Assembly: GCA_003484955.1 (NCBI GenBank)
Contig: DMZH01000002.1
Coordinates: 78,825 to 142,824, forward strand
Length of the DNA: 64,000 bases
Direction of reading: 5' to 3'
Origin: Candidatus Woesebacteria bacterium
GTDB taxonomy: Bacteria; Patescibacteriota; Microgenomatia; UBA8517
Positions 3,531 to 16,435 of this stretch are shown here, piece after piece. A program made the translations under genes and the position numbers. Every line of letters starts with the position of its first letter. Positions within the stretch are counted from its first letter, which is position 1. The notes below the pieces were generated by a model that worked only from the letters and a program-made list of their open reading frames with translations, made no database searches and was not told the origin of the DNA.

Positions 3531-4442
3531 TTGAAAAACCATTTAAGCAAAAAAAATAAAATTGGAATTATCGTTGTCCATTACGGCAATCCGCAGGATA
3601 CGATCGAGCTATTAGGTTCTTTGTCTAAGATAAATATATTTAATGGCATTTTATATTTAGTCGATAATGATCCCAAAAACAGGCTTAGGAAAATTCCCCA
3701 GTATAACTTCAAAATTAACTATATTAAATCAAAGAAAAACTTGGGCTGGGCTGGCGGTGCAGATTTTGCTGCACGGAAGGCCTACTCACAAGGCTGTGAC
3801 ACCCTATGTTTTCTGACATGTGATACAGTTATTAACGATAAATTTTTCTTAGACAAGATGACGAAACCCCTGGGAGATACAAAGATAGGTGCAACGATAC
3901 CTTTAGTTGTGTTTCATAACAACCCCAATCGGATTTGGAGTGCGGGTGGAAAGTTATATAAATTAATTGCCTATACAAAACATTATGACTATAACCGCTT
4001 TGTAACGATTAAAAATTTGAACAAGTACCCCGACTTCGGTGGTATAGGTCTTACTATGAGATCAGATGTTTATAAAAAGATAGGGGGATGGGATCCAAAT
4101 TATTTTTTGTATTATGAAGATGTCGATATATGTTTCAAAATACTTAAACGTAAACTAAAAATAAAATTAGTTTCCCAGGCCATTGTTGAACACAAAGCAA
4201 CTACCCCATCACGCGGGATTGAGATGAAGCTGTCCCCATTTTCATCATTTCACTATGGGAGAAGCGCTTTTATTTTTATTAAGAAAAATCTCACCGGTTT
4301 TGGTGTTCTAACAGCAATATTTGGTCAGATATTTATACGTGCCCCTTTGTTTATGATTGCAATGATGAGACAAAATAATTTTAAGGCTTTGAAATCCTAC
4401 GTCCATGGTTCACTATCTGGGGTAAAAGAAGTTTTGTTTTAA
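3531..4442 (+). CDS. glycosyltransferase family 2 (GT-A)
   Basis: N-terminal IGIIVVHYGN and a DxD-like YEDVDICF motif. TTG start. C-terminal hydrophobic stretch. Confidence 0.7.
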   Translation: MKNHLSKKNKIGIIVVHYGNPQDTIELLGSLSKINIFNGILYLVDNDPKNRLRKIPQYNFKINYIKSKKNLGWAGGADFAARKAYSQGCDTLCFLTCDTVINDKFFLDKMTKPLGDTKIGATIPLVVFHNNPNRIWSAGGKLYKLIAYTKHYDYNRFVTIKNLNKYPDFGGIGLTMRSDVYKKIGGWDPNYFLYYEDVDICFKILKRKLKIKLVSQAIVEHKATTPSRGIEMKLSPFSSFHYGRSAFIFIKKNLTGFGVLTAIFGQIFIRAPLFMIAMMRQNNFKALKSYVHGSLSGVKEVLF

Positions 4443-5284: not shown

Positions 5285-6559
5285 GTGGTAAAAGAATCTT
5301 TTGTAGATAAGGAACAAAACAAAGTACGTCTTTTGACGGTGTGTCAAGCGTGTAAGGGAAAAAAACTATACAAGTTTATAAATTTTGGGCCGATGCCCAA
5401 GCCGAATATATATCAAACACGTGAGGAAGTTATTCAACATGGTCAGATAAGTTATCAACTGGACGCAAATTTATGTATGAATTGTGGCCTGGTTCAACTA
5501 GGTGAAATAATCCCTTCAAGCGAACTTTTTGCAGACAATTACGCTTATCGTACCCCGGATGCTATGAAGTTTGATTTTAGAAATGGTGCTCACGAAACAA
5601 TAGATATCTCAAAAATACCAGAGGGATCTAAGGTTTTAGAAATTGGAAGCAATGTTGGGCTTTGTTTGAAAGAATATAAAAGATTGGGAATGAAAGTTAT
5701 TGGTGTCGACCCCGCCACAAAATATGCAAAGCAAGCCAACAAAGCAGGAATTAAAACTTTGATTGAACCATTTACACCGGTTTTGGCTAGTGAAATAGTC
5801 AAAAAAATGGGAAAGATGGATATTGTTACCGCAGCAAACGTATTGCAACACATTCCTGACATAAGAGGAACCATAGAGGGAATAGCGACACTACTTGCAC
5901 CAAAAGGTGTCTTTACTTTGGAATTCCCTTATCTGGGAAACATTCTTACAAATACAGATTTTGACACGTTCTATGCAGAGCATTACTATTATCTGTCTCT
6001 AAAACCACTACAAAGAATGTTTGAAGATTTCGGATTGACGATTGTTCATGCTAAACATTTGCCGGACATACACTGTGGTTCAATGAGGATTTTTGTTAAA
6101 CACGCTCCATCAAAAATGAGTCTAGTGGCAAAAGAAATACTAAAGCACGAAGAGGAACAGGGATTTTATGATCCAAATAAATTTGCTGCATTTAGAGTAA
6201 AGGTCAACGACATAATGTATCAAATACACGAACATCTTCACATAGCAAAAATGAGAGGCGAACGCATTGTTGCTCATGGCTCATCTGCCAAGTTTGTAAC
6301 GTTGACAAATTATGGACATATCGGTAGCGACATGATTGAATATGTTGCTGATTCAACCATCGCAAAACATGGAAAAGTCACTCCTGGTATGGGTATTCCT
6401 GTCGTATCTGAGGACAGGCTTATTAAAGACGCTCCAGACCTAATTTTTAATGGTATACGAAATTTTTATCAGCAAAATAAATCGAAATATGGCGAGATAA
6501 AGAGAAAAAATCCCAAGACGAAAATATTGATACCAATTCCAGAGGTAGAATATAAATAG
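5285..6559 (+). CDS. zinc-ribbon SAM-dependent C-methyltransferase (TylCIII/NovU-like sugar C-methyltransferase family)
   Basis: N-terminal CQAC...CMNC zinc-binding pairs, a central methyltransferase core (VLEIGSNVGL) and a C-terminal domain. This architecture is typical of NDP-hexose C-methyltransferases. GTG start is uncertain. Confidence 0.65.
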   Translation: MVKESFVDKEQNKVRLLTVCQACKGKKLYKFINFGPMPKPNIYQTREEVIQHGQISYQLDANLCMNCGLVQLGEIIPSSELFADNYAYRTPDAMKFDFRNGAHETIDISKIPEGSKVLEIGSNVGLCLKEYKRLGMKVIGVDPATKYAKQANKAGIKTLIEPFTPVLASEIVKKMGKMDIVTAANVLQHIPDIRGTIEGIATLLAPKGVFTLEFPYLGNILTNTDFDTFYAEHYYYLSLKPLQRMFEDFGLTIVHAKHLPDIHCGSMRIFVKHAPSKMSLVAKEILKHEEEQGFYDPNKFAAFRVKVNDIMYQIHEHLHIAKMRGERIVAHGSSAKFVTLTNYGHIGSDMIEYVADSTIAKHGKVTPGMGIPVVSEDRLIKDAPDLIFNGIRNFYQQNKSKYGEIKRKNPKTKILIPIPEVEYK

Positions 6560-6561
6560 AT

Positions 6562-7443
6562 CTATAATATCGCTTTTAATTCTTGTGCGAAGTCTTGGAT
6601 GGCTTCTTCCCATGTGGGTGGTTTTAAACCAAGTCTTTTTTCTGCGATTTCCGTAGCCAGGCCTCCAAATTTGGCGTATGGCTGTTTGCCGTTCATATCT
6701 TCAAATTTAGTAAGAGAGCCTTTCTTAATCCCTAATCCCAACCCCAATATCTTGTTTGTGTAAACACCGACTGCATATGGTGTGGTCAACCCTTTACATA
6801 CCCAGTGAAAAACCCCTGTTAATTTTAGTGTTGATAATTTCTCAATTACTGTTTGGAGAGATTTTATGTAGGTCGGTGTAAAATGTTGATCGGTAAATAA
6901 GGGATAACCCAATCTCACTGATTTTATAAGTTTTATTATATAGTCTTTGTCTGGAAAATCTGGATTCCCAAATGGATAGGCTATTCGAAGTATCGCTGCC
7001 TTTGCGCCGGACTTGTTAACTTCTATTTCTCCACGAAGTTTTGTGTAACCATATGGGCTAACTATTTTAAAATCGTCAAGCACTATTTCCGACTCGTCAT
7101 GAGGACCTTTGGATGTATTAAGGTAAGGAAACACTCCGTCGGTCGAGATGTGTATTAAAAACTTGCCCGTCTCTTTACACACCTCTGCAACATTTTTAGT
7201 TCCATCGACATTTAATTTCCAAGATGGACCATTTGGATCACGCGTTGCCGTTTTAACATCAGTGAAAGCGGCAAAATTAATTACAACATCAGCCATTTCT
7301 GCATATTGTCTAATAGAGTCTTTTTGGGTTATATCCAAGTCGGGAAATGGCGGGGAAATTACTTTTTGGAGAGGGGAGGAAAAACCTTGCAAAACTTTAG
7401 ATCCGACAAATCCATGTTTTCCAATAAACAGTATTTTTGACAT
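6562..7443 (-). CDS. NAD(P)-dependent sugar epimerase/reductase, RmlD-like (dTDP-4-dehydrorhamnose reductase family)
   Basis: N-terminal Rossmann motif ILFIGKHGFVGSKV. About 290 aa, the size of RmlD/short SDR epimerases. Adjacent to the C-methyltransferase. Confidence 0.6.
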   Translation of the reverse strand: MSKILFIGKHGFVGSKVLQGFSSPLQKVISPPFPDLDITQKDSIRQYAEMADVVINFAAFTDVKTATRDPNGPSWKLNVDGTKNVAEVCKETGKFLIHISTDGVFPYLNTSKGPHDESEIVLDDFKIVSPYGYTKLRGEIEVNKSGAKAAILRIAYPFGNPDFPDKDYIIKLIKSVRLGYPLFTDQHFTPTYIKSLQTVIEKLSTLKLTGVFHWVCKGLTTPYAVGVYTNKILGLGLGIKKGSLTKFEDMNGKQPYAKFGGLATEIAEKRLGLKPPTWEEAIQDFAQELKAIL

Positions 7444-7494
7444 TTAGCCATTTTATATCGGCACCTTTGATAAATGTAGTGGTAATATATATGT

Positions 7495-9066
7495 ATGTAC
7501 CTTAATCTTTCGGACTCCGCGAAGTTTGCAGACATTGCTAGAAATTTAGTAAATGGCTTAGGATATGGGAGTACTTTTTCCTTTTGGTCCATAAATATTT
7601 TTGAGCTAATTAAAACAAAAACATTTTGGTCTCCCTGGGTTCCTCCAGTAATACCTTATTCGATTGCAGCATTTTTTAAAATCTTTGGAGTAGGGGACTT
7701 TGCGGTAATTGCTACCTCGTTTTTCTATTTTATTCTCACTTTAGTTTTTGTTTACTTCTTGGGAAAGAGAATTTTCAACTCAAAATTAGTTGGGATTCTT
7801 TCTACTCTTACTATTGGATTTAGTTATGATCTGATCCACTATGCAACAAATGGTGCTTCAGAATCCCCTTTCATTTTTGAAATAGTGGCAGCTTCTTATT
7901 TTGCATCTATTAAAAAAAAGTGGGCGAGCGCAGTAACTATTTTATTATTGATTTTGATGTACTTCACCCGTCCCCAAGCGTTTATCTATATCACAGGGAT
8001 CGTGCTTTACTGGCTTTTAATTAACTTTAAGTTCAAAAAAGCATTGATTTTTTTTGGAATCATCTCAGTTGTTGGTTTTTTGGTTGATTATTTTGTACTA
8101 ATGTCACTTTCCGGAAAATATTTTTTGTATTCGATAATAGGCCGCGGAGTTGGCTCCTCCTTTAGCCAAACTTCAGTTGCCTCTGACGTTTTGCGCGGGG
8201 CCACCATTGTTGTTGAAGGAGGAATCTCACAAACCCTCAAAAACATTCTCTACAATCTTTACAACTTTTATAAACTTCTGCCACAAATAATATCATCATA
8301 CCTTTTTGGAATTTTTGTAACTGGTTTATTCCTTAAATCAAAAAACAAGACAGAAAGCTCATTTAAAATTGTCTCGACATTCATTGTGGCTTTTACTTTT
8401 TTAGTCACCGCCGCTAGTATTCCTTTTTTTAGGTATTTACACCCGGTTATTCCACTTGTGTACATTATTGCGACAGGGACACTCGTGGAAATAATTTCTA
8501 AATTCGAAATCCTAAATGCGAGACAGATTCCAAACCCCAAATCACAAATTCAAAATAAAAGATTCACAATTATTGCTTCCACATTCTTGATTCTTCTGTT
8601 TGGTGTTGGACAGACACTTGGAGTTTTAATTCTGGATTCAAGGTTTGAGGCAAAGACTCACAATGTTAGCAAACCTCCTGTGTACATCACACTTTCAAAG
8701 ATTTTGAATGAAAATACAGATAATAATCAGGTTGTTGTTACGAATCTTGATACCTGGGGGAGCTGGTACGGTGAGAGGAGAACCGCTTGGTTCCCTCTGG
8801 AACCAAAACAAATTATTGATCCGACGACGGGTAAAATTCCCTTTGATGCAATTTATCTGACAAACTACCTGATTGATGACGCAAATTATTATATGGGAAA
8901 TGATTGGAGAATGATCTTTAATAATCCAAACGATCCAAAGAAATGGACGTGCAGCAGCTGTGACGAGATTGCTAAGGAATTTACCTTGAAAGGTGTATAT
9001 AAAGTCCCCGCAAGTGACAATTATGAGCGTCTGGACTCTTCGGCTATTCTTCTAATCAAAAAGTAG
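7495..9066 (+). CDS. GT-C glycosyltransferase, ArnT/PMT-like (GT39/GT83-type)
   Basis: DSAKFADIARNLVNG closely resembles the ArnT/PMT first-loop motif DE-x2-YA-x2-AR-x-M. More than 10 transmembrane helices and a C-terminal soluble domain. The N-terminal TM1 usually found before the motif is absent (in-frame stop upstream). Confidence 0.7.
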   Translation: MYLNLSDSAKFADIARNLVNGLGYGSTFSFWSINIFELIKTKTFWSPWVPPVIPYSIAAFFKIFGVGDFAVIATSFFYFILTLVFVYFLGKRIFNSKLVGILSTLTIGFSYDLIHYATNGASESPFIFEIVAASYFASIKKKWASAVTILLLILMYFTRPQAFIYITGIVLYWLLINFKFKKALIFFGIISVVGFLVDYFVLMSLSGKYFLYSIIGRGVGSSFSQTSVASDVLRGATIVVEGGISQTLKNILYNLYNFYKLLPQIISSYLFGIFVTGLFLKSKNKTESSFKIVSTFIVAFTFLVTAASIPFFRYLHPVIPLVYIIATGTLVEIISKFEILNARQIPNPKSQIQNKRFTIIASTFLILLFGVGQTLGVLILDSRFEAKTHNVSKPPVYITLSKILNENTDNNQVVVTNLDTWGSWYGERRTAWFPLEPKQIIDPTTGKIPFDAIYLTNYLIDDANYYMGNDWRMIFNNPNDPKKWTCSSCDEIAKEFTLKGVYKVPASDNYERLDSSAILLIKK

Positions 9067-9144
9067 GGTAAAATATAGTGGTGAAAAGATACATCGAATT
9101 AGGCAAATCCATGCTTTTGTCGGCAACAGCCAAGGACAGATCTT

Positions 9145-10101
9145 ATGAGAAAAAATAATGCAAAATTAGTTATATACCAAACAAAATCAGGGTCGCTTGA
9201 ATTTAAAGGTGATTTTGAGAAAGATACTATTTGGGCTACACAGTCTCAAATAGTGGAACTTTTTTCTGTTGATCAGTCTGTAGTGTCCAGACATATCCGC
9301 AATATCTTTGATGAGGGTGAGGTTTCCTCTAAAAGCAATATGCAGAAAATGCATATTGCAAATTCTGATAAGCCGGTAGTTTTTTATTCACTTGATGTTG
9401 TATTGGCGGTTGGTTATAGAACTAATTCGAAAATTGCTATAGATTTCAGAAAATGGGCGACAAAAGTCCTAAGGCAGCATATTTTGGAAGGTTACACTAT
9501 AAATCGGAGACTTATCTCAAGAAATTACCAGTCATATTTGAAGGCTGTCGAGAATGTCAAAAAATACCTCCCTGTAAGTGACAAACTAAAAACATCAGAT
9601 GTTTTAGATTTGGTTAAAATGTTTGCTTCAACTTGGTTGTCCCTGGATTCGTATGACAAGGACGGATTACCCAAGAAGGGAAGTACTAAAAGACAAATAA
9701 CAGTTACATCAAATGATTTGTCGGAAGCTTTATCGAATCTCAAGGAAAGCCTGATAAAACAAGGTATAGCCACAGATCTTTTTGGTCAAGGAAGACAGAA
9801 AAACGATGTTGATTCAATCATCAAAAATGTTTTTCAATCCTATGCCGGCAAAGATTTATATCCGACCTTGGAGGAGAAAGCAGCAAATTTACTTTATTTC
9901 ATTGCAAAAGGTCACCCCTTTTTGGATGGAAACAAAAGAAGCGCTGCATTCGCATTTGTCTGGTTTTTGAGGAAAGCCAATATTTTAAATATTTCTGAGA
10001 TTACCCCGGAGGCATTAACTGCTTTGACTCTTCTTGTTGCAGAAAGTAACCCCAAGGATAAAGGAAAAATAATTGGATTGATTCTGATGTTAATAAAATA
10101 A
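9145..10101 (+). CDS. RhuM-family virulence protein fused to Fic/Doc domain (Doc-type toxin motif HxFxDGNKR)
   Basis: N-terminus (KLVIYQTKSGSLEF...QSQIVELFSVDQSVVSRHIRNIF) is typical of RhuM. C-terminus carries HPFLDGNKR at nt 9913-9939, identical to the Doc/Fic signature. Confidence 0.75.
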   Translation: MRKNNAKLVIYQTKSGSLEFKGDFEKDTIWATQSQIVELFSVDQSVVSRHIRNIFDEGEVSSKSNMQKMHIANSDKPVVFYSLDVVLAVGYRTNSKIAIDFRKWATKVLRQHILEGYTINRRLISRNYQSYLKAVENVKKYLPVSDKLKTSDVLDLVKMFASTWLSLDSYDKDGLPKKGSTKRQITVTSNDLSEALSNLKESLIKQGIATDLFGQGRQKNDVDSIIKNVFQSYAGKDLYPTLEEKAANLLYFIAKGHPFLDGNKRSAAFAFVWFLRKANILNISEITPEALTALTLLVAESNPKDKGKIIGLILMLIK

Positions 10102-10103
10102 TA

Positions 10104-11387
10104 ATGAAAAAAATATTTGATTGGGGAAGACAAATGCTTTTTTCTGCCACCGCCAAAGACACGTTTGTGCTTTTTGTCGGAAATTTAGGAGCTGCCTTTT
10201 GGGGTTTTCTTTTCATATTATTTGTTGCCCGCTCCTTGAGTGTTTATGATTTTGGTATTTTTTCTGCCGCACTCAATCTGGTTGTGATTCTTGCGTCCCT
10301 TGCTGATATAGGAATTTCGACAGGTTCTGTTAATTTTGTATCCGTCCACTCAGCAAAAGGTGAGCATGAAAAGGCCAATGAATATGTAAAAGCTTCATTT
10401 CTAATCAGACTTTTTATAGTTTTGGGAATTTCGGTGATAATCGTCGTATTTGCGCCTTTTGTTTCAAAGACTTTTCTGGCAACTCAGGACCCCAAAATCG
10501 CCATTTGGGCAGCCGTTATCCCAATTTTTCTTTTTCCGGATTTGTTTTTCCCATACATCCTGCAGGCAAAGAAAAAATTTCTTCACTCAACAATTATTGA
10601 TAATGCCTTTTATATTGCAAGGCTTTTATTTGCCCTGGCTTTTTACACAATTGGAGGCTTGACTATGTCCAAAGCTTTTTGGGCGTTTGGAGTAGGGTTC
10701 GCGGCGTCGCTTGTGTTTATTTTTATCTATTTGAAACCTGATTTTTTTAGGTCCCACCCAGGAAAAGAGGAATATAAAAAATTACTTAAATATTCCGGAT
10801 GGATTGGGGTCAACAGAATTATTTCTTCAGTTTCAGGGAGACTCGATGTTCAAATGCTGGCGACAATGGCAGGAGCTCTTGCAACAGGTCTTTATTCAAT
10901 TCCCTCAAGACTTGCATCTTTTATTATAGTTTTATCCGGAAGTTTTTCCGCAGTACTTGCTCCAAGACTTGCCGGATTTGGTAACAAAGAAAACGAGAAG
11001 AAATATATCCTTAAATCTCTTATCGCCCTTTTGCCGATTACGGCAGGAATAGTACTTTGGATAATAATTGCCAAACCTTTTATACTCACACTTTTCGGGG
11101 ATAAATATATAGACTCTGTTCCTGTTTTTCAGGCTTTGGCTCTCGCACAAATTCCATTTTTATTTACAGTTCCTTCCGTATCGGCCATTATTTACGCCAT
11201 GAAGAAAACCGTATTTATTGGAACTTTTTCATTTTTCCAGATAGCAGCCATTTTTCTTTTAAACTTTTTCCTGATTCCTAAATTCGGGGTTTTTGGGCCA
11301 ACTATTACCCTAGGAGTTACAAACATAATCCTAGCGGTCTATACGTGGGTGATAGTTATTAAATACTATTGGAAAGATAAATCCTAA
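10104..11387 (+). CDS. oligosaccharide flippase (Wzx-like, MOP superfamily polysaccharide biosynthesis protein)
   Basis: 427 aa with about 12-14 transmembrane helices, the layout of Wzx/polysacc_synt proteins. Sits in the glycan cluster. Confidence 0.65.
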   Translation: MKKIFDWGRQMLFSATAKDTFVLFVGNLGAAFWGFLFILFVARSLSVYDFGIFSAALNLVVILASLADIGISTGSVNFVSVHSAKGEHEKANEYVKASFLIRLFIVLGISVIIVVFAPFVSKTFLATQDPKIAIWAAVIPIFLFPDLFFPYILQAKKKFLHSTIIDNAFYIARLLFALAFYTIGGLTMSKAFWAFGVGFAASLVFIFIYLKPDFFRSHPGKEEYKKLLKYSGWIGVNRIISSVSGRLDVQMLATMAGALATGLYSIPSRLASFIIVLSGSFSAVLAPRLAGFGNKENEKKYILKSLIALLPITAGIVLWIIIAKPFILTLFGDKYIDSVPVFQALALAQIPFLFTVPSVSAIIYAMKKTVFIGTFSFFQIAAIFLLNFFLIPKFGVFGPTITLGVTNIILAVYTWVIVIKYYWKDKS

Positions 11388-13246
11388 ATAAAGTATGCTC
11401 TGTACCAAAGCTCCAATGACATGAGTGTCCAAAGGCGCGGACCAAAATCCTGAGTTTTGTTGTTATCCTCAATCATTGATTTAACATAGTTAACATCAAA
11501 TACGTCTTTTACAAATGATTTTTTATTGAGCAAAACACTTTTCGCGTAAGAGTTAAGTTCACCCGAGAACCATTTGTTTAAAGGGATGGTAAAGCCCATT
11601 TTTGGTCTATAAAGATTTTCTTTTGGCACAATCTTTTCAAAAGCTTTTTTCAAAATATATTTAGATTCTCCACTTTTCATTTTAAGATTGAATGGAATTT
11701 TGCAGGCCAGCTCAACCATCTTTTGATCCAGGAGGGGAGACCTGGCTTCAAGTGAAACAGCCATGGAAGCAATATCCACTTTTGTTAAGAGTTGATCGGG
11801 AAGAAAATATTGAAGATCAAATTTTAGCCCGGCATCTTTTAAATCCTTGCCGTTAAAATTTCTAAAACAATCATTTACTGTTTGATAAGGATTGCTTCTT
11901 TTTGCCAGTGAAAGAATATTCCCCCTTGAATGGTTTATCAGTTCATCCGGGTTAAAAATTTGATTGTATGATGCAAATCTGCTGTAAAGGGGAAGTTTCG
12001 CTTTCTCAAAAAAATTATTAGCTTTTGGGAATGATTTTAAGAGCTTTGCGGCAAGAGGTCTCATATCCTGAATCCAATAGTCATAATCTACATCCCGTTT
12101 TAGTCTCATGTATCTGTTTGGGTATCCGCCAAAATTTTCATCCCCTCCGTCACCGTTTAGGGCCACGGTTACATATTTTTTTGTCATTTTGGAAACCATA
12201 TAAGTAACAATATTACTTGCGTCTGCGAATGGTTCCTCATACTGCCTTGCCAGGCCGGGTAAGGTTTCAACAGATTGCGGCTTTGCAATTAAGACGTGGT
12301 GATCTGTCTTGTAGCGTTTAGCAATATTTTTAGCGTATCGGCTTTCATCTAATTTTTTATCCGCAAAAGCTATGGTAAAAGTTTTTACAGGCTTTGGAGA
12401 TAGGGCTGCCATAGCAGCTACCACGCCGCTACTGTCAACCCCTCCGGAAAGGAAGGCTCCAATAGGTACGTCCGAAATCATGCGAAGGCGGGTTGATTGC
12501 TCCAAGGTGTCGAGTATTCTTTTGCACCATTCGCGCTCACTTAAATGTAGTTTATTTCTATACCTTGGCTGCCAATATCGGATCTTTTGAACAGTTTTCC
12601 TGGCCAAGTTAATTAATAGATAAGTTCCTGGTTCCAGTTTCTTAATACTCTCAAAGCCTGTCATTGGAGCAGGACAGTATCCGTAAGTCAAATAAAGTTG
12701 TAAGGCTTTGTAGTCTGGAGATTTTGTAAATCCTGTTTGGGTGAGAATGGCTTTCAGCTCAGAAGCAAAAATTATTTGTGAGCCATCCAGAAAGTATTTA
12801 AGCGGTTTTTTGCCGATTCTATCGCGGGCCAGAAATAAAGTTTCGTTAACATTGTCATATATTGCAAAAGCAAACATTCCTCTTAAATGTTTGAGGCAGG
12901 AGACTCCATATTTTGAGTAAAGAGCCAAAACAACTTCCGTATCCGTTTCCGAACTAAATTTATATCCTTCCTTTACTAGTTTTTCTTTTTCTTCTTTGAA
13001 GTTGTAGATTTCTCCGTTAAAAGTTATTACATATCTGTCTCCGTATTTCATCGGTTGATGTCCCCGGGTGGATAAATCTATTATTGCCAGGCGCCTGCTG
13101 GCAAAACCCACTCTTTTATTTTTTGAAACGAAGAACCCTTCATCATCCGGACCCCTGTGGGTAATGGAGGTAGACATCATTTTCAGTTCACCCAGATGAA
13201 CTTCGTGGTTTTTATTAAAGTATGCCTTACCGGCAATTCCGCACAT
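11384..13246 (-). CDS. asnB: asparagine synthase (glutamine-hydrolysing), AsnB/WbpS-like amidotransferase
   Basis: MCGIAG N-terminal nucleophile (Cys2) and SGGVDSS PP-loop. The start is set at the Met-Cys; the 25-aa extension in the ORF track is rejected. Confidence 0.9.
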   Translation of the reverse strand: MCGIAGKAYFNKNHEVHLGELKMMSTSITHRGPDDEGFFVSKNKRVGFASRRLAIIDLSTRGHQPMKYGDRYVITFNGEIYNFKEEKEKLVKEGYKFSSETDTEVVLALYSKYGVSCLKHLRGMFAFAIYDNVNETLFLARDRIGKKPLKYFLDGSQIIFASELKAILTQTGFTKSPDYKALQLYLTYGYCPAPMTGFESIKKLEPGTYLLINLARKTVQKIRYWQPRYRNKLHLSEREWCKRILDTLEQSTRLRMISDVPIGAFLSGGVDSSGVVAAMAALSPKPVKTFTIAFADKKLDESRYAKNIAKRYKTDHHVLIAKPQSVETLPGLARQYEEPFADASNIVTYMVSKMTKKYVTVALNGDGGDENFGGYPNRYMRLKRDVDYDYWIQDMRPLAAKLLKSFPKANNFFEKAKLPLYSRFASYNQIFNPDELINHSRGNILSLAKRSNPYQTVNDCFRNFNGKDLKDAGLKFDLQYFLPDQLLTKVDIASMAVSLEARSPLLDQKMVELACKIPFNLKMKSGESKYILKKAFEKIVPKENLYRPKMGFTIPLNKWFSGELNSYAKSVLLNKKSFVKDVFDVNYVKSMIEDNNKTQDFGPRLWTLMSLELWYRAYFI

Positions 13247-13299
13247 CTCCCAGCAATTGTACAGCAGAAATTTAGGTTTAAAAAGGTTACAATTGAGGT

Positions 13300-14139
13300 A
13301 TGCAGGTTTGGGCCCATACACTTGTAAAGAACGAAGAAAAATGGCTTTGGTATTCTGTCACCTCAGTAATTGATCACGTAGATAAACTTCTCTTGTGGGA
13401 CACAGGAAGCACAGATAAAAGTATTGAGATAGAGAAAGAGTTAGAGAAAAAATACCCGGGAAAAATCGAACTTAAGCAAAGAAAAATTACTTCCCCCTCC
13501 GACTTTACAAAAACGCGTCAGGAAATGCTTGATGTGACATCCTCCGATTGGTTCATAGTTCTTGATGCAGATGAGATTTGGTATGAAGATTCTATAAAGA
13601 AATTTATTGGGACAATTAACAATAGAGGACAAAACATTGAATCGGTTGTTGTACCGACAATTAATTTAGTAGGGGATATCTTTCATCGACAAGCCGAGTC
13701 TGCCGGAAGATATAAGTTTGGCAGTAGAGTGGGGCATTATAATTTGAGAGCCGTAAAGCGGAATATCCCGGGACTTCATTCGGAGGGTGTTCATGGGGTT
13801 TGGGGTTGGGTAGATGATGAAAATAAAATGATCCAAGACAGAGACTCGGAAAAAGTAAAATTTGTCGATGCTCCTTATTTGCACGCCTCATTTTTACCAA
13901 GAGGTGGAACAAAAGGAAAGGATTTGGAAGTTGTCAAAAGATCAAAAAAACTAAAGCATGAGTTGGGAGAAAATCTTTCAAAAGATTTTTATTACCCCGA
14001 AGTTTTTTTCAAGGAGAAACCCAATTTTATTCCAAGTCCGTGGAGTACAATGTCAGCATCTTTTAAATTTAGAGCTTTTTTTGAAACACCTCTTCGGAAA
14101 ATGAAAAGGGTAATTTGGTGGGGTAGAGCCGGATACTAA
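13300..14139 (+). CDS. glycosyltransferase family 2-like
   Basis: FIVLDADEIWYED DxD motif and a GT-A like N-terminal half. Confidence 0.55.
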   Translation: MQVWAHTLVKNEEKWLWYSVTSVIDHVDKLLLWDTGSTDKSIEIEKELEKKYPGKIELKQRKITSPSDFTKTRQEMLDVTSSDWFIVLDADEIWYEDSIKKFIGTINNRGQNIESVVVPTINLVGDIFHRQAESAGRYKFGSRVGHYNLRAVKRNIPGLHSEGVHGVWGWVDDENKMIQDRDSEKVKFVDAPYLHASFLPRGGTKGKDLEVVKRSKKLKHELGENLSKDFYYPEVFFKEKPNFIPSPWSTMSASFKFRAFFETPLRKMKRVIWWGRAGY

Positions 14140-14148
14140 TAATAAATT

Positions 14149-15495
14149 ATGAAGAAAAAAGATTATATATTGGTGACTGGAATTTTAGCGGTTCATTTAT
14201 TGCTTTTGATTGTTTTAAAGTTTACTGCCTGGCCGGAAATGAGCCTTTGGCCATACCTTATTGCCAAAGGATGGTTGCCCTACAGGGATATCGCCATTGC
14301 CCATACTCCCCTCATGCTTTTTGACCTGGGTCTTTTCTACAAGATTTTCGGTACAGGAATACTTCAGCTGAAAATATTTACTTGGCTCCTGATTCTGATT
14401 TTTGACGGACTCGTCTTTTTTGTTGCCAGAAAACTTTGGAATACAAAAGCCGCATTTATTGCGCTTGGTGCCTTTGCCTTCTGGAACCTTTTTTACGATG
14501 GTAACGGGCTTTGGTTTGATCTTTATATGGGTCTAATGGTCTTTTGTTCTTTCTACTTTGCAAGACAGAAAAAGTGGCTTTGGACGGGAGTTTTCTGGGC
14601 ATTGGCTTTTGTTTCCAAACAAACAGCTGTTTGGTTTTTGATTCCAATCTTGTTGGAATTAGAACAAAGTACAAAGTACAGAGTACAGAATTTTAAAAAA
14701 CTAATTACAGGGACTCTGTCGGTTTTTGTTCCGTTCTTTTTGATAATGTGGGCGGTTGGGGTTTTGCCGGACTTCTGGAACTGGGCTGTAAAGTTTGGAA
14801 TTTTCATTCTTCCCAAAGCTCAGGGGCAAGTTCAGCTTCCGGATTTTAAAAATCTGGCTGTGGCAACATTCCCGTTTCTGATTTTTATTCCGCTTATTCT
14901 AAAATCCGGCCGCAAAAATCTTAATATATTAGTTTGGGCAGTTGCCGGAAGCCTCGGGGCGTTTCCCAGGTTTGAATTTTTCCATTTTCAGTCGGCAGTT
15001 CCCTTTTTGGCGATTGCAACAGGATTGGTGTTTGAAAGAGTCAAAAAGGAAAAAAAGTTATTCAAACCACTTGTTCCGGTTTACATTACCGTTTCAATAA
15101 TTCTTTTCGCGGGCTTTTTCATGAGAAATTTTAAGGAAGGCACCAGATTTTATGAAGCTAATGTTGTCAATGTTATAACGTTTGTAAATTACAACACAAA
15201 GCCTGGGGACAAAATATTTGTTCTGAACTGGTGGGACAACATATATGCACTAACAGATACGTTGCCAGCTACCGATCCCTGGGTTCCGCAGCTTTCCTGG
15301 TATATAGAGATTCCCGGGGTACAGGAAAAAATGGTGGAGGATCTGAAAGCAAATCCGCCGAAAATGATAATTTACAATTCCTATACAATGTCCGGACTTT
15401 CATCATATATTCCCCAAAAGGTTTACAATTTTGTCACGGAAAATTATAAAATCACTCAGAGGGTTGATAACCTGGAGGTATTAACTAAAAAATAA
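14149..15495 (+). CDS. polytopic membrane protein, possible GT-C-type glycosyltransferase
   Basis: 448 aa with about 9-11 transmembrane helices and a C-terminal soluble domain. Lies between GT2 and GT4 genes. Confidence 0.4.
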   Translation: MKKKDYILVTGILAVHLLLLIVLKFTAWPEMSLWPYLIAKGWLPYRDIAIAHTPLMLFDLGLFYKIFGTGILQLKIFTWLLILIFDGLVFFVARKLWNTKAAFIALGAFAFWNLFYDGNGLWFDLYMGLMVFCSFYFARQKKWLWTGVFWALAFVSKQTAVWFLIPILLELEQSTKYRVQNFKKLITGTLSVFVPFFLIMWAVGVLPDFWNWAVKFGIFILPKAQGQVQLPDFKNLAVATFPFLIFIPLILKSGRKNLNILVWAVAGSLGAFPRFEFFHFQSAVPFLAIATGLVFERVKKEKKLFKPLVPVYITVSIILFAGFFMRNFKEGTRFYEANVVNVITFVNYNTKPGDKIFVLNWWDNIYALTDTLPATDPWVPQLSWYIEIPGVQEKMVEDLKANPPKMIIYNSYTMSGLSSYIPQKVYNFVTENYKITQRVDNLEVLTKK

Positions 15496-15496
15496 G

Positions 15497-16435
15497 GTGA
15501 AAATCGCGTTTTTAAATAAATATCAAGAAAAAGTTCGGCGTGGAGCGGAGACTTTTGTCTTCGAGCTTTCGAATCGCCTGTCCGAGCACCACAAAGTTGA
15601 CGTCATCGCAGATATTAACTATTTGAATCTTCTGAAAGGCAAATACGATGTAATTATTCCGACAAACGGAAGATTCCAGGTTGTTCTGGTTAGGATTATT
15701 TCCCTACTGACTGGAGCCAAAATGATAGTTTCGGGCCAATCCGGAATGGGTTGGGATGATAAAGTGAATTTGTATTCATGCCCCAATGCTTTTGTCGCAC
15801 TTTCCAAGAAAGCTCTAGCTTGGGCAAAGGAGGTCAACCCCCGCGTTAAATCTTTGTATATTCCAAACGGAGTGGACCTAACTAAATTTAATCCAAAAGG
15901 GAAAGTGTATAAAACAAGGATTAAAAAACCTGTGGTTCTTTGTGGAGGTGCTTTTACTCCTCAAAAAAGAATGGATTTGTCGATTAAAGCTGTCGCCAAA
16001 CTTCCCGGGGTAAGCCTTTTAATGGTTGGTGGGGGAGGAGAGCTTAGGGGAGAGCTGGAAAGATATGGAGAAAAGATTTTGGGTAAGGACAGATTTGAAC
16101 TTTTATCGGTTCCTTTTGAGAAAATGCCAGAGATTTATAGAGCCGCAGATGTGTTTACACTTCCCTCAAGGCCGTCTGAATCATTCGGAAATGTTTTAGT
16201 TGAAGCAATGGCCACCAATTTGCCGGTTGTGGCAACAAATGACCCTGTCAGGAGCGGGATTGTTGGGGAGGCAGGGCTTCTGGTTGACCCGACGGATACA
16301 AAGGCTTATGCCAAGGCGATCGAAAAAGCACTGAATCAAAATTGGGAAGGTAAACCAAGAGAACAGGCAAAAAAGTTTTCCTGGGACGAAATCGCCAAAA
16401 AGTATGAAGACTTGTTTAATGAACTAAAAAAATGA
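15497..16435 (+). CDS. glycosyltransferase family 1 (GT4)
   Basis: ESFGNVLVEAMATNLPVVATN E-x7-E motif. GTG start. Confidence 0.8.
   Translation: MKIAFLNKYQEKVRRGAETFVFELSNRLSEHHKVDVIADINYLNLLKGKYDVIIPTNGRFQVVLVRIISLLTGAKMIVSGQSGMGWDDKVNLYSCPNAFVALSKKALAWAKEVNPRVKSLYIPNGVDLTKFNPKGKVYKTRIKKPVVLCGGAFTPQKRMDLSIKAVAKLPGVSLLMVGGGGELRGELERYGEKILGKDRFELLSVPFEKMPEIYRAADVFTLPSRPSESFGNVLVEAMATNLPVVATNDPVRSGIVGEAGLLVDPTDTKAYAKAIEKALNQNWEGKPREQAKKFSWDEIAKKYEDLFNELKK

Follow-up and report, generated by a model that had tools for sequence, protein, structure and literature searches.

The gene analysed here lies in a 64,000-nt stretch of the Candidatus Woesebacteria contig DMZH01000002.1 (assembly GCA_003484955.1, positions 78,825 to 142,824 of the forward strand), the whole of which is called the window below. 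It encodes a fusion of a RhuM-type N-terminal domain to a Doc-type Fic domain (RhuM-Doc) and is located in a surface-glycan locus, where it is flanked on the left by a glycosyltransferase gene of the GT-C type and on the right by a gene for a Wzx-type flippase with 520 homologs at E ≤ 1e-30 (Table 1). The first-pass annotation of this DNA had placed the gene between these two, on the same strand and with short gaps, and this arrangement holds: the three share the + strand and are separated by 78 nt and 2 nt, and the neighbors match PMT_2 and Polysacc_synt profiles. Genes for RmlD-like, C-methyltransferase, Asn-synthase-like and family 2 glycosyltransferase (GT2) proteins are found farther away. 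A promoter and terminator scan of positions 7300-11600 gave no signal above shuffled expectation and no terminator between the genes, and there is no tRNA gene in the window as a possible integration site. The GC content of the RhuM-Doc gene (~0.36) is the same as that of its neighbors, with no signal of foreign DNA in the base composition.

Table 1. Features of the RhuM-Doc locus, with positions in the window.
Feature	Position	Strand	Basis
GT-C-type (PMT_2) glycosyltransferase gene, left neighbor	7495..9066	+	Pfam PF13231
26-codon open reading frame (ORF) that contains the left flippase-start copy and whose stop codon, in a different frame, overlaps the RhuM-Doc ATG (9145)	9078..9158	+	ORF listing
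Diverged copy of the first 21 codons of the flippase gene (63 nt), left insertion boundary	9081..9143	+	alignment
RhuM-N / Doc-type Fic fusion gene	9145..10101	+	ORF, 318 amino acids, ATG start
N-terminal domain (residues 1-112), Bro-N/KilA-N/antirepressor-like, putative DNA-binding, the 'RhuM' part	9145..9480	+	AlphaFold2, Foldseek, PHROG, PADLOC
Helical linker (residues 113-188)	9481..9708	+	
Linker motif K158-MFASTWLSLDSYDK-D173 (KMFASTWLSLDSYDKD), residues 158-173, possible Phd-like Doc-neutralising helix	9616..9663	+	
Doc-type Fic domain (residues 189-318)	9709..10098	+	Foldseek, PHROG, PDB matches
Catalytic motif HPFLDGNKRSAA	9913..9948	+	direct sequence reading
Wzx-type (Polysacc_synt) flippase gene	10104..11387	+	Pfam PF01943, E 1e-25
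Right-hand flippase start (63 nt), part of the intact flippase gene	10104..10166	+	

The two-domain composition given in the first-pass annotation was borne out by Pfam and by the codons themselves, positions 9913-9939 reading CAC CCC TTT TTG GAT GGA AAC AAA AGA, i.e., HPFLDGNKR. Virulence_RhuM (PF13310) matches residues 72-131 with 56.5 bits (cut-off 33.7), which places the protein in the RhuM family; the match covers just profile positions 15-76 of 252 and does not amount to a full-length RhuM domain, the Doc domain standing where classical RhuM has its C-terminal part. The Fic profile (PF02661) matches residues 204-275 with 49.2 bits (cut-off 24). An AlphaFold2 (AF2) model of the full-length protein, built on a 91-sequence alignment, consists of two confident domains (residues ~6-110 and 180-318) with a low-confidence helical linker between them. 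The N-terminal domain (predicted local distance difference test, pLDDT, 78-93) resembles Bro-N, KilA-N and antirepressor DNA-binding proteins in a Foldseek comparison with BFVD, and residues 27-118 match the PHROG 'anti-repressor Ant'. For the C-terminal domain, residues 199-301 match the PHROG 'Doc-like toxin' (E 4e-17), the PDB entry 9vzc ('Death-on-curing family protein') is found by sequence (E 1e-5), and the top Foldseek matches in the PDB are the P1 Doc chains 3k33_A and 3dd7_A (TM-score 0.65-0.71 on the target, probability 1.00); the P1 Doc matches and PF02661 together indicate a Fic/Doc fold.

Fic-fold proteins with the Doc D1 consensus Hxxx[D/E]GNKRxx[not R] are of the kinase type, and those with GNGRxxR are of the AMPylase type (PMC4454073). 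The motif HPFLDGNKRSAA satisfies the kinase-type consensus and not that of the AMPylases. H257, P258, D261, G262 and N263 are invariant across the 91-sequence alignment, K264 and R265 are at least 90% conserved, and HxFxDGNKRxx!R occurs in 113 of the top 120 homologs. Loss of the catalytic His or Asn had been named in advance as an observation that would speak against a Doc toxin; both residues are present in all 91 sequences. Judged from these residues, the C-terminal region is a Doc-type Fic domain whose kinase-type active site is complete.

RhuM-Doc is a member of a known and catalogued family (RhuM/Fic/DOC, PDC-S23) and is not new as a gene. Its architecture is shared by >7,997 database homologs, which come from Patescibacteria, Peregrinibacteria, Spirochaetia, Schekmanbacteria and other groups and are named 'virulence protein RhuM/Fic/DOC family protein' in NCBI RefSeq. 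The top 120 homologs are 315-342 amino acids long, except for one truncated match of 250, all with both Pfam domains, and are 59-77% identical to the query, plus one fragment at 100%. Three PADLOC models of PDC-S23 match residues 4-318 (E 1.4e-100, 3.2e-89 and 8.7e-89), the best match spanning profile positions 3-324 of 327 and thus the full length. Length, two-domain architecture and the HxFxDGNKR motif agree with PDC-S23 and the RefSeq family, while the genomic context differs: the PDC candidates were defined by their embedding in type I restriction-modification (R-M), BREX or DISARM operons, whereas the window copy has glycan genes and no defence system as its neighbors and is located at a flippase gene start. 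PDC-S05 (RhuM) models match the N-terminal ~130-200 residues (E down to 2e-52), the part shared with classical RhuM, whose C-terminal part is replaced by Doc in the window protein. A PDC-S05 gene with a RhuM domain lowered T7 and T5 plating by ~1,000-fold and also protected E. coli from T4. The RhuM/Doc fusion and its R-M context were already described in 2013 (PMC3710099).

Plasmid-borne relatives (35-41% identity) are cargo beside Tn3 transposase or HTH/DUF262 genes, and phages mostly carry the N-terminal domain alone. Homologs that are 56-66% identical occur in metagenome-assembled genomes labelled as Pacearchaeota (DPANN archaea), Gammaproteobacteria, Rhizobium, Bdellovibrionales, Methylomirabilis and many phyla of the Candidate Phyla Radiation (CPR); such genomes include those of loci L020, L012 and L024 (among L007-L086). 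Either wide horizontal transfer or binning contamination would account for this spread.

To ask whether the gene belongs to the glycan locus, related loci were collected by means of the flippase, since look-ups anchored on RhuM-Doc, which first suggested conservation, are biased with respect to its presence and flippase-anchored look-ups are not. A metagenome scan with the flippase alignment, which used just two N-terminal patterns, gave 5 loci, and look-ups from homologous proteins to their contigs then added others. Among seven distinct flippase-anchored loci, five are empty, one contains a RhuM-Doc pseudogene and one contains a different gene. The clearest case is L094 (flippase 85% identical), which has the exact gene order of the window (C-methyltransferase / RmlD / GT-C of 523 amino acids / flippase / Asn-synthase-like / GT2; GT-C 84% identical) with the GT-C and flippase genes 24 bp apart and no RhuM-Doc between them. 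A GT2 gene is directly upstream of the flippase in the empty loci L100 (flippase 95% identical), L095 (81%) and L101-104 (79%), and a 239-amino-acid ORF on the minus strand takes this position in the empty L087/88 (72%). In L097 (83%) the slot upstream of the flippase holds a gene for an NYN-domain protein (PIN-like nuclease; 3824-4417). In L092/93 (94%) a RhuM-Doc pseudogene is found directly upstream together with a second, unannotated cassette of three ORFs. The pseudogene (L092, 2894-3195; also in L093) retains the first 73 codons, which are 84% identical to the window copy, and an internal deletion extends from codon 73 to the last ~10 codons (GLVLMLIKK*), so that the Doc domain is gone. 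The arrangement of the window itself recurs in AMFJ01005431 and DOYR01000039.1 at 100% and 99.99% identity.

Because the flippase-anchored loci are empty, pseudogenised or occupied by another gene, RhuM-Doc is optional cargo in a variable slot and is not part of a conserved glycan core. The gene is dispensable and moves by horizontal exchange; its slot in this surface-glycan locus of Microgenomates (CPR) is the 5' end of the flippase gene. The first-pass annotation had suggested an element inserted into a core envelope locus and had proposed a synteny comparison, in which presence of the gene at all orthologous loci would have pointed to a conserved cluster member; with the GT-C and flippase genes adjacent in L094, four further empty loci and one pseudogene, the insertion reading is supported. 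Mosaic O-antigen and capsule loci are similar in that they contain differing cargo, or none, at one site depending on the strain.

The insertion can be traced to a precise position. A second, diverged copy of the flippase start is found at the left boundary of the inserted DNA (VKRYIELGKSMLLSATAKDRS on the left vs. MKKIFDWGRQMLFSATAKDTF on the right) and is the sole 63-nt stretch on either strand of the window with ≥60% identity to the flippase start. A repeat search of the window, for which the left copy is too diverged to provide exact seeds, did not pick it up and gave no other cassette-like repeats. The left copy is 73-76% identical to the flippase starts of other strains and 63% to the window's own, and the right copy is 90% identical to the flippase start of L003. 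The left copy takes the position that the flippase start has in the empty L094, directly after the GT-C stop codon, and therefore represents the resident start, with the insertion after codon 21. The insert brought in the RhuM-Doc gene, behind which comes a full flippase start; the flippase is thereby kept intact, and the old start persists as the 26-codon ORF.

The same left junction (...ACTTTT/TATGAG..., the slash marking the joint) is present in L091, whose RhuM-Doc is 62% identical to that of the window, and also in L092. The first 17 nt of the left copy in L091, along with the preceding upstream spacer, match the empty locus L100, and its right copy and the adjoining 3' end of RhuM-Doc resemble the contiguous RhuM-Doc/flippase junction of L003. 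The likeness of the right side to L003 suggests that in the donor RhuM-Doc was already immediately upstream of the flippase. A counterpart of the 26-codon ORF is intact in L091 (4843-4920; 25-26 codons in both); its retention despite the 62% identity of the RhuM-Doc genes suggests selection, as for an upstream ORF or translational coupling, or gene conversion.

The second cassette of L091 and L092 is joined ~4 nt earlier (...GACAC/ACCG...), after a further copy of the flippase start, and spans 3196-4470 in L092 and 5888-6066 in L091, with ORFs of 67, 78 and 211 amino acids that have no Pfam, PADLOC or PHROG match. There are three flippase-start copies in L092, and the two cassettes are in tandem in L091. 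Two independent cassette junctions thus lie within ~5 nt of each other in the flippase start. This footprint, with tandem cassettes at one site, is new detail beyond the first-pass annotation. A further gene-start remnant was observed in L097, where a stranded fragment of 24 residues (1887-1958) is 75% identical to the GT-C N-terminus.

The simplest account of the junctions would be one rare illegitimate or Campbell-type event per cassette. Later spread could then have occurred by homologous recombination, with a nearly invariant 29-nt core (ATGCTTTTTTCTGCNACNGCCAAAGACAC) and the flippase body as arms; after a single rare illegitimate event, the mechanism may have been no more than ordinary homologous exchange. 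Gene-end integrative elements (e.g., tRNA-gene islands) likewise duplicate the gene end, leave the target intact and have a remnant at the other boundary. They differ in that here no integrase or recombinase was seen, the insert is a single 1-kb gene, and the duplicated end is the 5' end of a protein-coding gene.

Sequence divergence was compared between RhuM-Doc and its surroundings. The dN/dS of RhuM-Doc is 0.08 vs. L001 and 0.11 vs. L003, values of ~0.1 that mark it as a working gene under purifying selection. Relative to L003/L005, the flippase is 94-95% identical (dS 0.29) and RhuM-Doc 69-70%, with dS saturated; identity along the RhuM-Doc gene varies from 43% to 88% and steps up exactly at 10104. 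RhuM-Doc and the flippase thus have separate histories. A first BLAST reading had placed a breakpoint at 9423; this was replaced by a multi-segment mosaic relative to L005 with a clean step at the flippase start. It is the L003-L006 allele that has the aberrant N-terminal segment, a classical-RhuM-type stretch swapped in at residues ~40-100; the window allele is typical of the family.

The rest of the locus is also uneven. At the DNA level, the GT-C gene is ~72% identical to that of L005/L006 and identity is 91-93% across the region with the flippase, Asn-synthase-like and GT2 genes (10104-13751); against L094 the picture is the opposite, with GT-C up to 95% and the flippase ~75%. The contrast within one and the same relative (GT-C 72% vs. 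flippase 94%) marks the glycan locus as a recombination mosaic with its switch point at the cassette slot. The first-pass annotation is supported on the insertion; the locus that it called 'core' is not a stable one.

These comparisons bear on the idea that RhuM-Doc co-evolved with the glycan operon as an integral part of it, for example to regulate or modify the flippase or glycosyltransferases, with its Doc domain phosphorylating an envelope-synthesis protein and its N-terminal domain regulating the operon. The closest homologs (P0001, 77% identical; P0006, 69-70%) are indeed located 0-3 nt upstream of an orthologous flippase in three left-flank contexts, the genes are on the same strand without a terminator, purifying selection on RhuM-Doc is strong, and another homolog, P0003, also adjoins sugar-nucleotide genes. 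However, RhuM-Doc is absent from five independent related loci with otherwise the same genes and is a pseudogene in L092, its divergence does not follow that of the flippase, and neither any flippase nor this GT-C is near the gene at any of 80 family loci from other genomes. As orthology fails in this way, RhuM-Doc is not a core glycan gene, and we regard the operon-member explanation as improbable. The first-pass annotation had also offered a regulator co-opted for envelope stress, and nothing was found in support of it.

The absence and decay of the gene in some relatives would also be expected of an inert hitch-hiker, a selfish gene decaying at this site with no remaining function. The pseudogene in L092 and the presence/absence polymorphism among relatives fit this explanation, which nevertheless seems very improbable given that the other assemblies with the gene have an identical, intact ORF, that dN/dS is ~0.1 and that all catalytic residues are kept.

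RhuM-Doc could also be an effector aimed at another cell, the CPR episymbiont delivering a Doc kinase into its host. This is reminiscent of BifA of Streptococcus equi subsp. zooepidemicus, which has the same RhuM-N/Fic-C domain order, was acquired horizontally on an island, and has activity and host-cell effects that depend on the Fic histidine (PMC6529018). The abundance of the family in CPR/Patescibacteria and the location of the gene in a cell-surface locus are compatible with such a role. The reported target of BifA during infection is, however, eukaryotic moesin, which a groundwater CPR bacterium does not have; the annotated neighbors include no secretion genes, the motif is of the Doc type, and the family extends to many free-living phyla and to plasmids, beside transposases and R-M genes. 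We therefore give the effector explanation very little weight.

Phage P1 Doc, the best structural match (22-24% identity), likewise has Lys for the second Gly and no final Arg in the motif, and differs in being a single domain of ~126 amino acids with a separate upstream gene for the antitoxin Phd; the window protein has 188 extra N-terminal residues (DNA-binding domain and linker) and no antitoxin gene. The first-pass annotation had seen no Phd-like ORF upstream, which proved correct: on the + strand, no ORF of 20 codons or more occupies the 78-nt gap apart from the 26-codon flippase-start fragment, and there is no adjacent antitoxin gene of the kind that defines a type II Phd-Doc module. We extended the search to 80 homolog loci from GTDB species representatives, using rough gene maps from a longest-ORF caller that breaks genes in code-25 lineages. 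BLAST clustering of all neighbors at these loci gave no conserved partner gene or antitoxin family; the commonest neighbor type is an R-M methylase (14/80), and ten small, tightly coupled upstream ORFs are mutually unrelated (methylase fragment, HIT, cupredoxin, unknown). With no neighbor conserved and the small upstream ORFs unrelated, the family behaves as a single-gene unit. Another explanation, that RhuM-Doc is the toxin of a classical Phd-Doc type II addiction module of two genes whose antitoxin was overlooked, would agree with the Doc fold and motif and with a few homologs that have a small upstream ORF in tight coupling (HTH_3 in one case). It is the least probable explanation and is largely refuted, as no partner gene was found: the gap has no ORF besides the flippase remnant, the flippase begins 2 nt after the RhuM-Doc stop, and no neighbor family is conserved.

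A possible substitute for Phd was noticed in the linker. F160, A161, T163, W164, S166, L167, Y170 and D171 are at least 98% conserved in the alignment. P1 Doc is an EF-Tu kinase that is neutralised by the C-terminal helix of Phd (PMC9207808), and linker residues 158-173 align with Phd 54-69 (AEFASLFDTLDSTNKE) such that F160, W164 and L167 fall on Phd F56, F60 and L63 (permutation P = 0.02; 6 of 706 unrelated background proteins score equally high). The linker has pLDDT <50 in the full-length AF2 model; when residues 140-318 are modelled alone they form one compact domain (predicted template modelling score 0.80) with the linker helix at pLDDT ~68. We treat the helix as a weak lead, a hypothetical Doc-neutralising element within the same chain.

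Taken together, we favor RhuM-Doc as a stand-alone RhuM-N/Doc fusion, carried as dispensable cargo in the slot, that acts as a single-chain toxin-type factor in defence or addiction (probability roughly 0.6). A self-contained Doc-kinase function in defence or abortive infection is inferred from the P1 Doc precedent and the defence-island contexts of the family. RhuM-Doc would be co-transcribed with the glycan genes and possibly coupled in translation to the leftover 26-codon ORF, whose stop overlaps its ATG. The N-terminal domain would sense foreign DNA or protein as the trigger; the released Doc domain would then phosphorylate a translation factor, which on the P1 Doc precedent would be EF-Tu, and growth would halt. 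Until then, inhibition would reside in the same polypeptide, possibly in the linker helix, in place of a separate Phd antitoxin.

Several observations weigh against this interpretation. The window copy is outside any R-M or defence island, and the rest of the slot's cargo has little defence signal, the NYN gene of L097 giving just a weak PADLOC match (HEC-09). PDC-S23 is among what its source paper calls '145 untested phage defence candidates'. The NCBIfam model DOC_P1 (TIGR01550) scores 38.4 bits, marginally below its cut-off of 38.65, and in BifA the RhuM domain is dispensable and the reported target eukaryotic (PMC6529018). The conserved junction of 0-3 nt with the flippase could reflect a functional link to the flippase. 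As for the helix, hhalign selects exactly the pairing of 158-173 with Phd 54-69 at a non-significant E = 0.25, a phmmer search of the PDB with the linker alone did not retrieve Phd, and the PDC-S05 models of RhuM proteins also span the linker region.

A bolder version of the single-chain toxin interpretation, which we consider doubtful, combines three elements: the first ~63 nt of the flippase gene as a reusable docking site for cassettes, the leftover 26-codon ORF as a driver of toxin translation, and a single-chain toxin-antitoxin protein whose MFASTWLSLDSYDK helix mimics Phd. With such a docking site, a flippase-start copy may border each cassette, and arrays could grow without loss of the flippase; L091 and L092, with two cassettes and three flippase-start copies, may be examples of such arrays. 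Two elements stand out as unusual, neither of them established: the flippase-start duplication with tandem cassettes, and a possible built-in inhibitory helix. Optional cargo in the start of a flippase gene is by itself mildly interesting rather than new.

For annotation, RhuM-Doc is best described as a RhuM/Fic/DOC (PDC-S23) accessory defence or toxin candidate, and neither as a glycan-pathway enzyme nor as a two-gene toxin-antitoxin module. Besides being recombination mosaics, CPR surface-glycan loci acquire cargo of the toxin type, and do so at a precise position where the flippase is left unbroken. If the Phd-like helix is real, it would explain how thousands of 'orphan' Doc fusions stay harmless and would make a very common, uncharacterised defence candidate accessible to a simple and testable model. 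If cassettes do prefer the flippase start, this would add a new, if minor, case of insertion that restores a gene end without a visible recombinase.

Other inserts were observed in these loci. L003-L006 contain a gene for a 127-amino-acid, 23S_rRNA_IVP / bAvd-like four-helix-bundle protein (PHROG 'Avd protein of DGR') between GT-C and RhuM-Doc; in L003 it spans 5515-5898 on the minus strand, with RhuM-Doc at 6001-6969. We considered whether the slot collects defence genes; this was not established, as neither the ORFs of the second cassette nor the bAvd-like gene has a PADLOC match. Elsewhere in the same glycan locus, L003 contains a 93-amino-acid GIY-YIG ORF (10579-10860) between PMT_2 and GT4 genes that is absent from the window at the corresponding position (15451-15497), where the two sequences are otherwise 90-93% identical; it is another small, selfish-looking insert.

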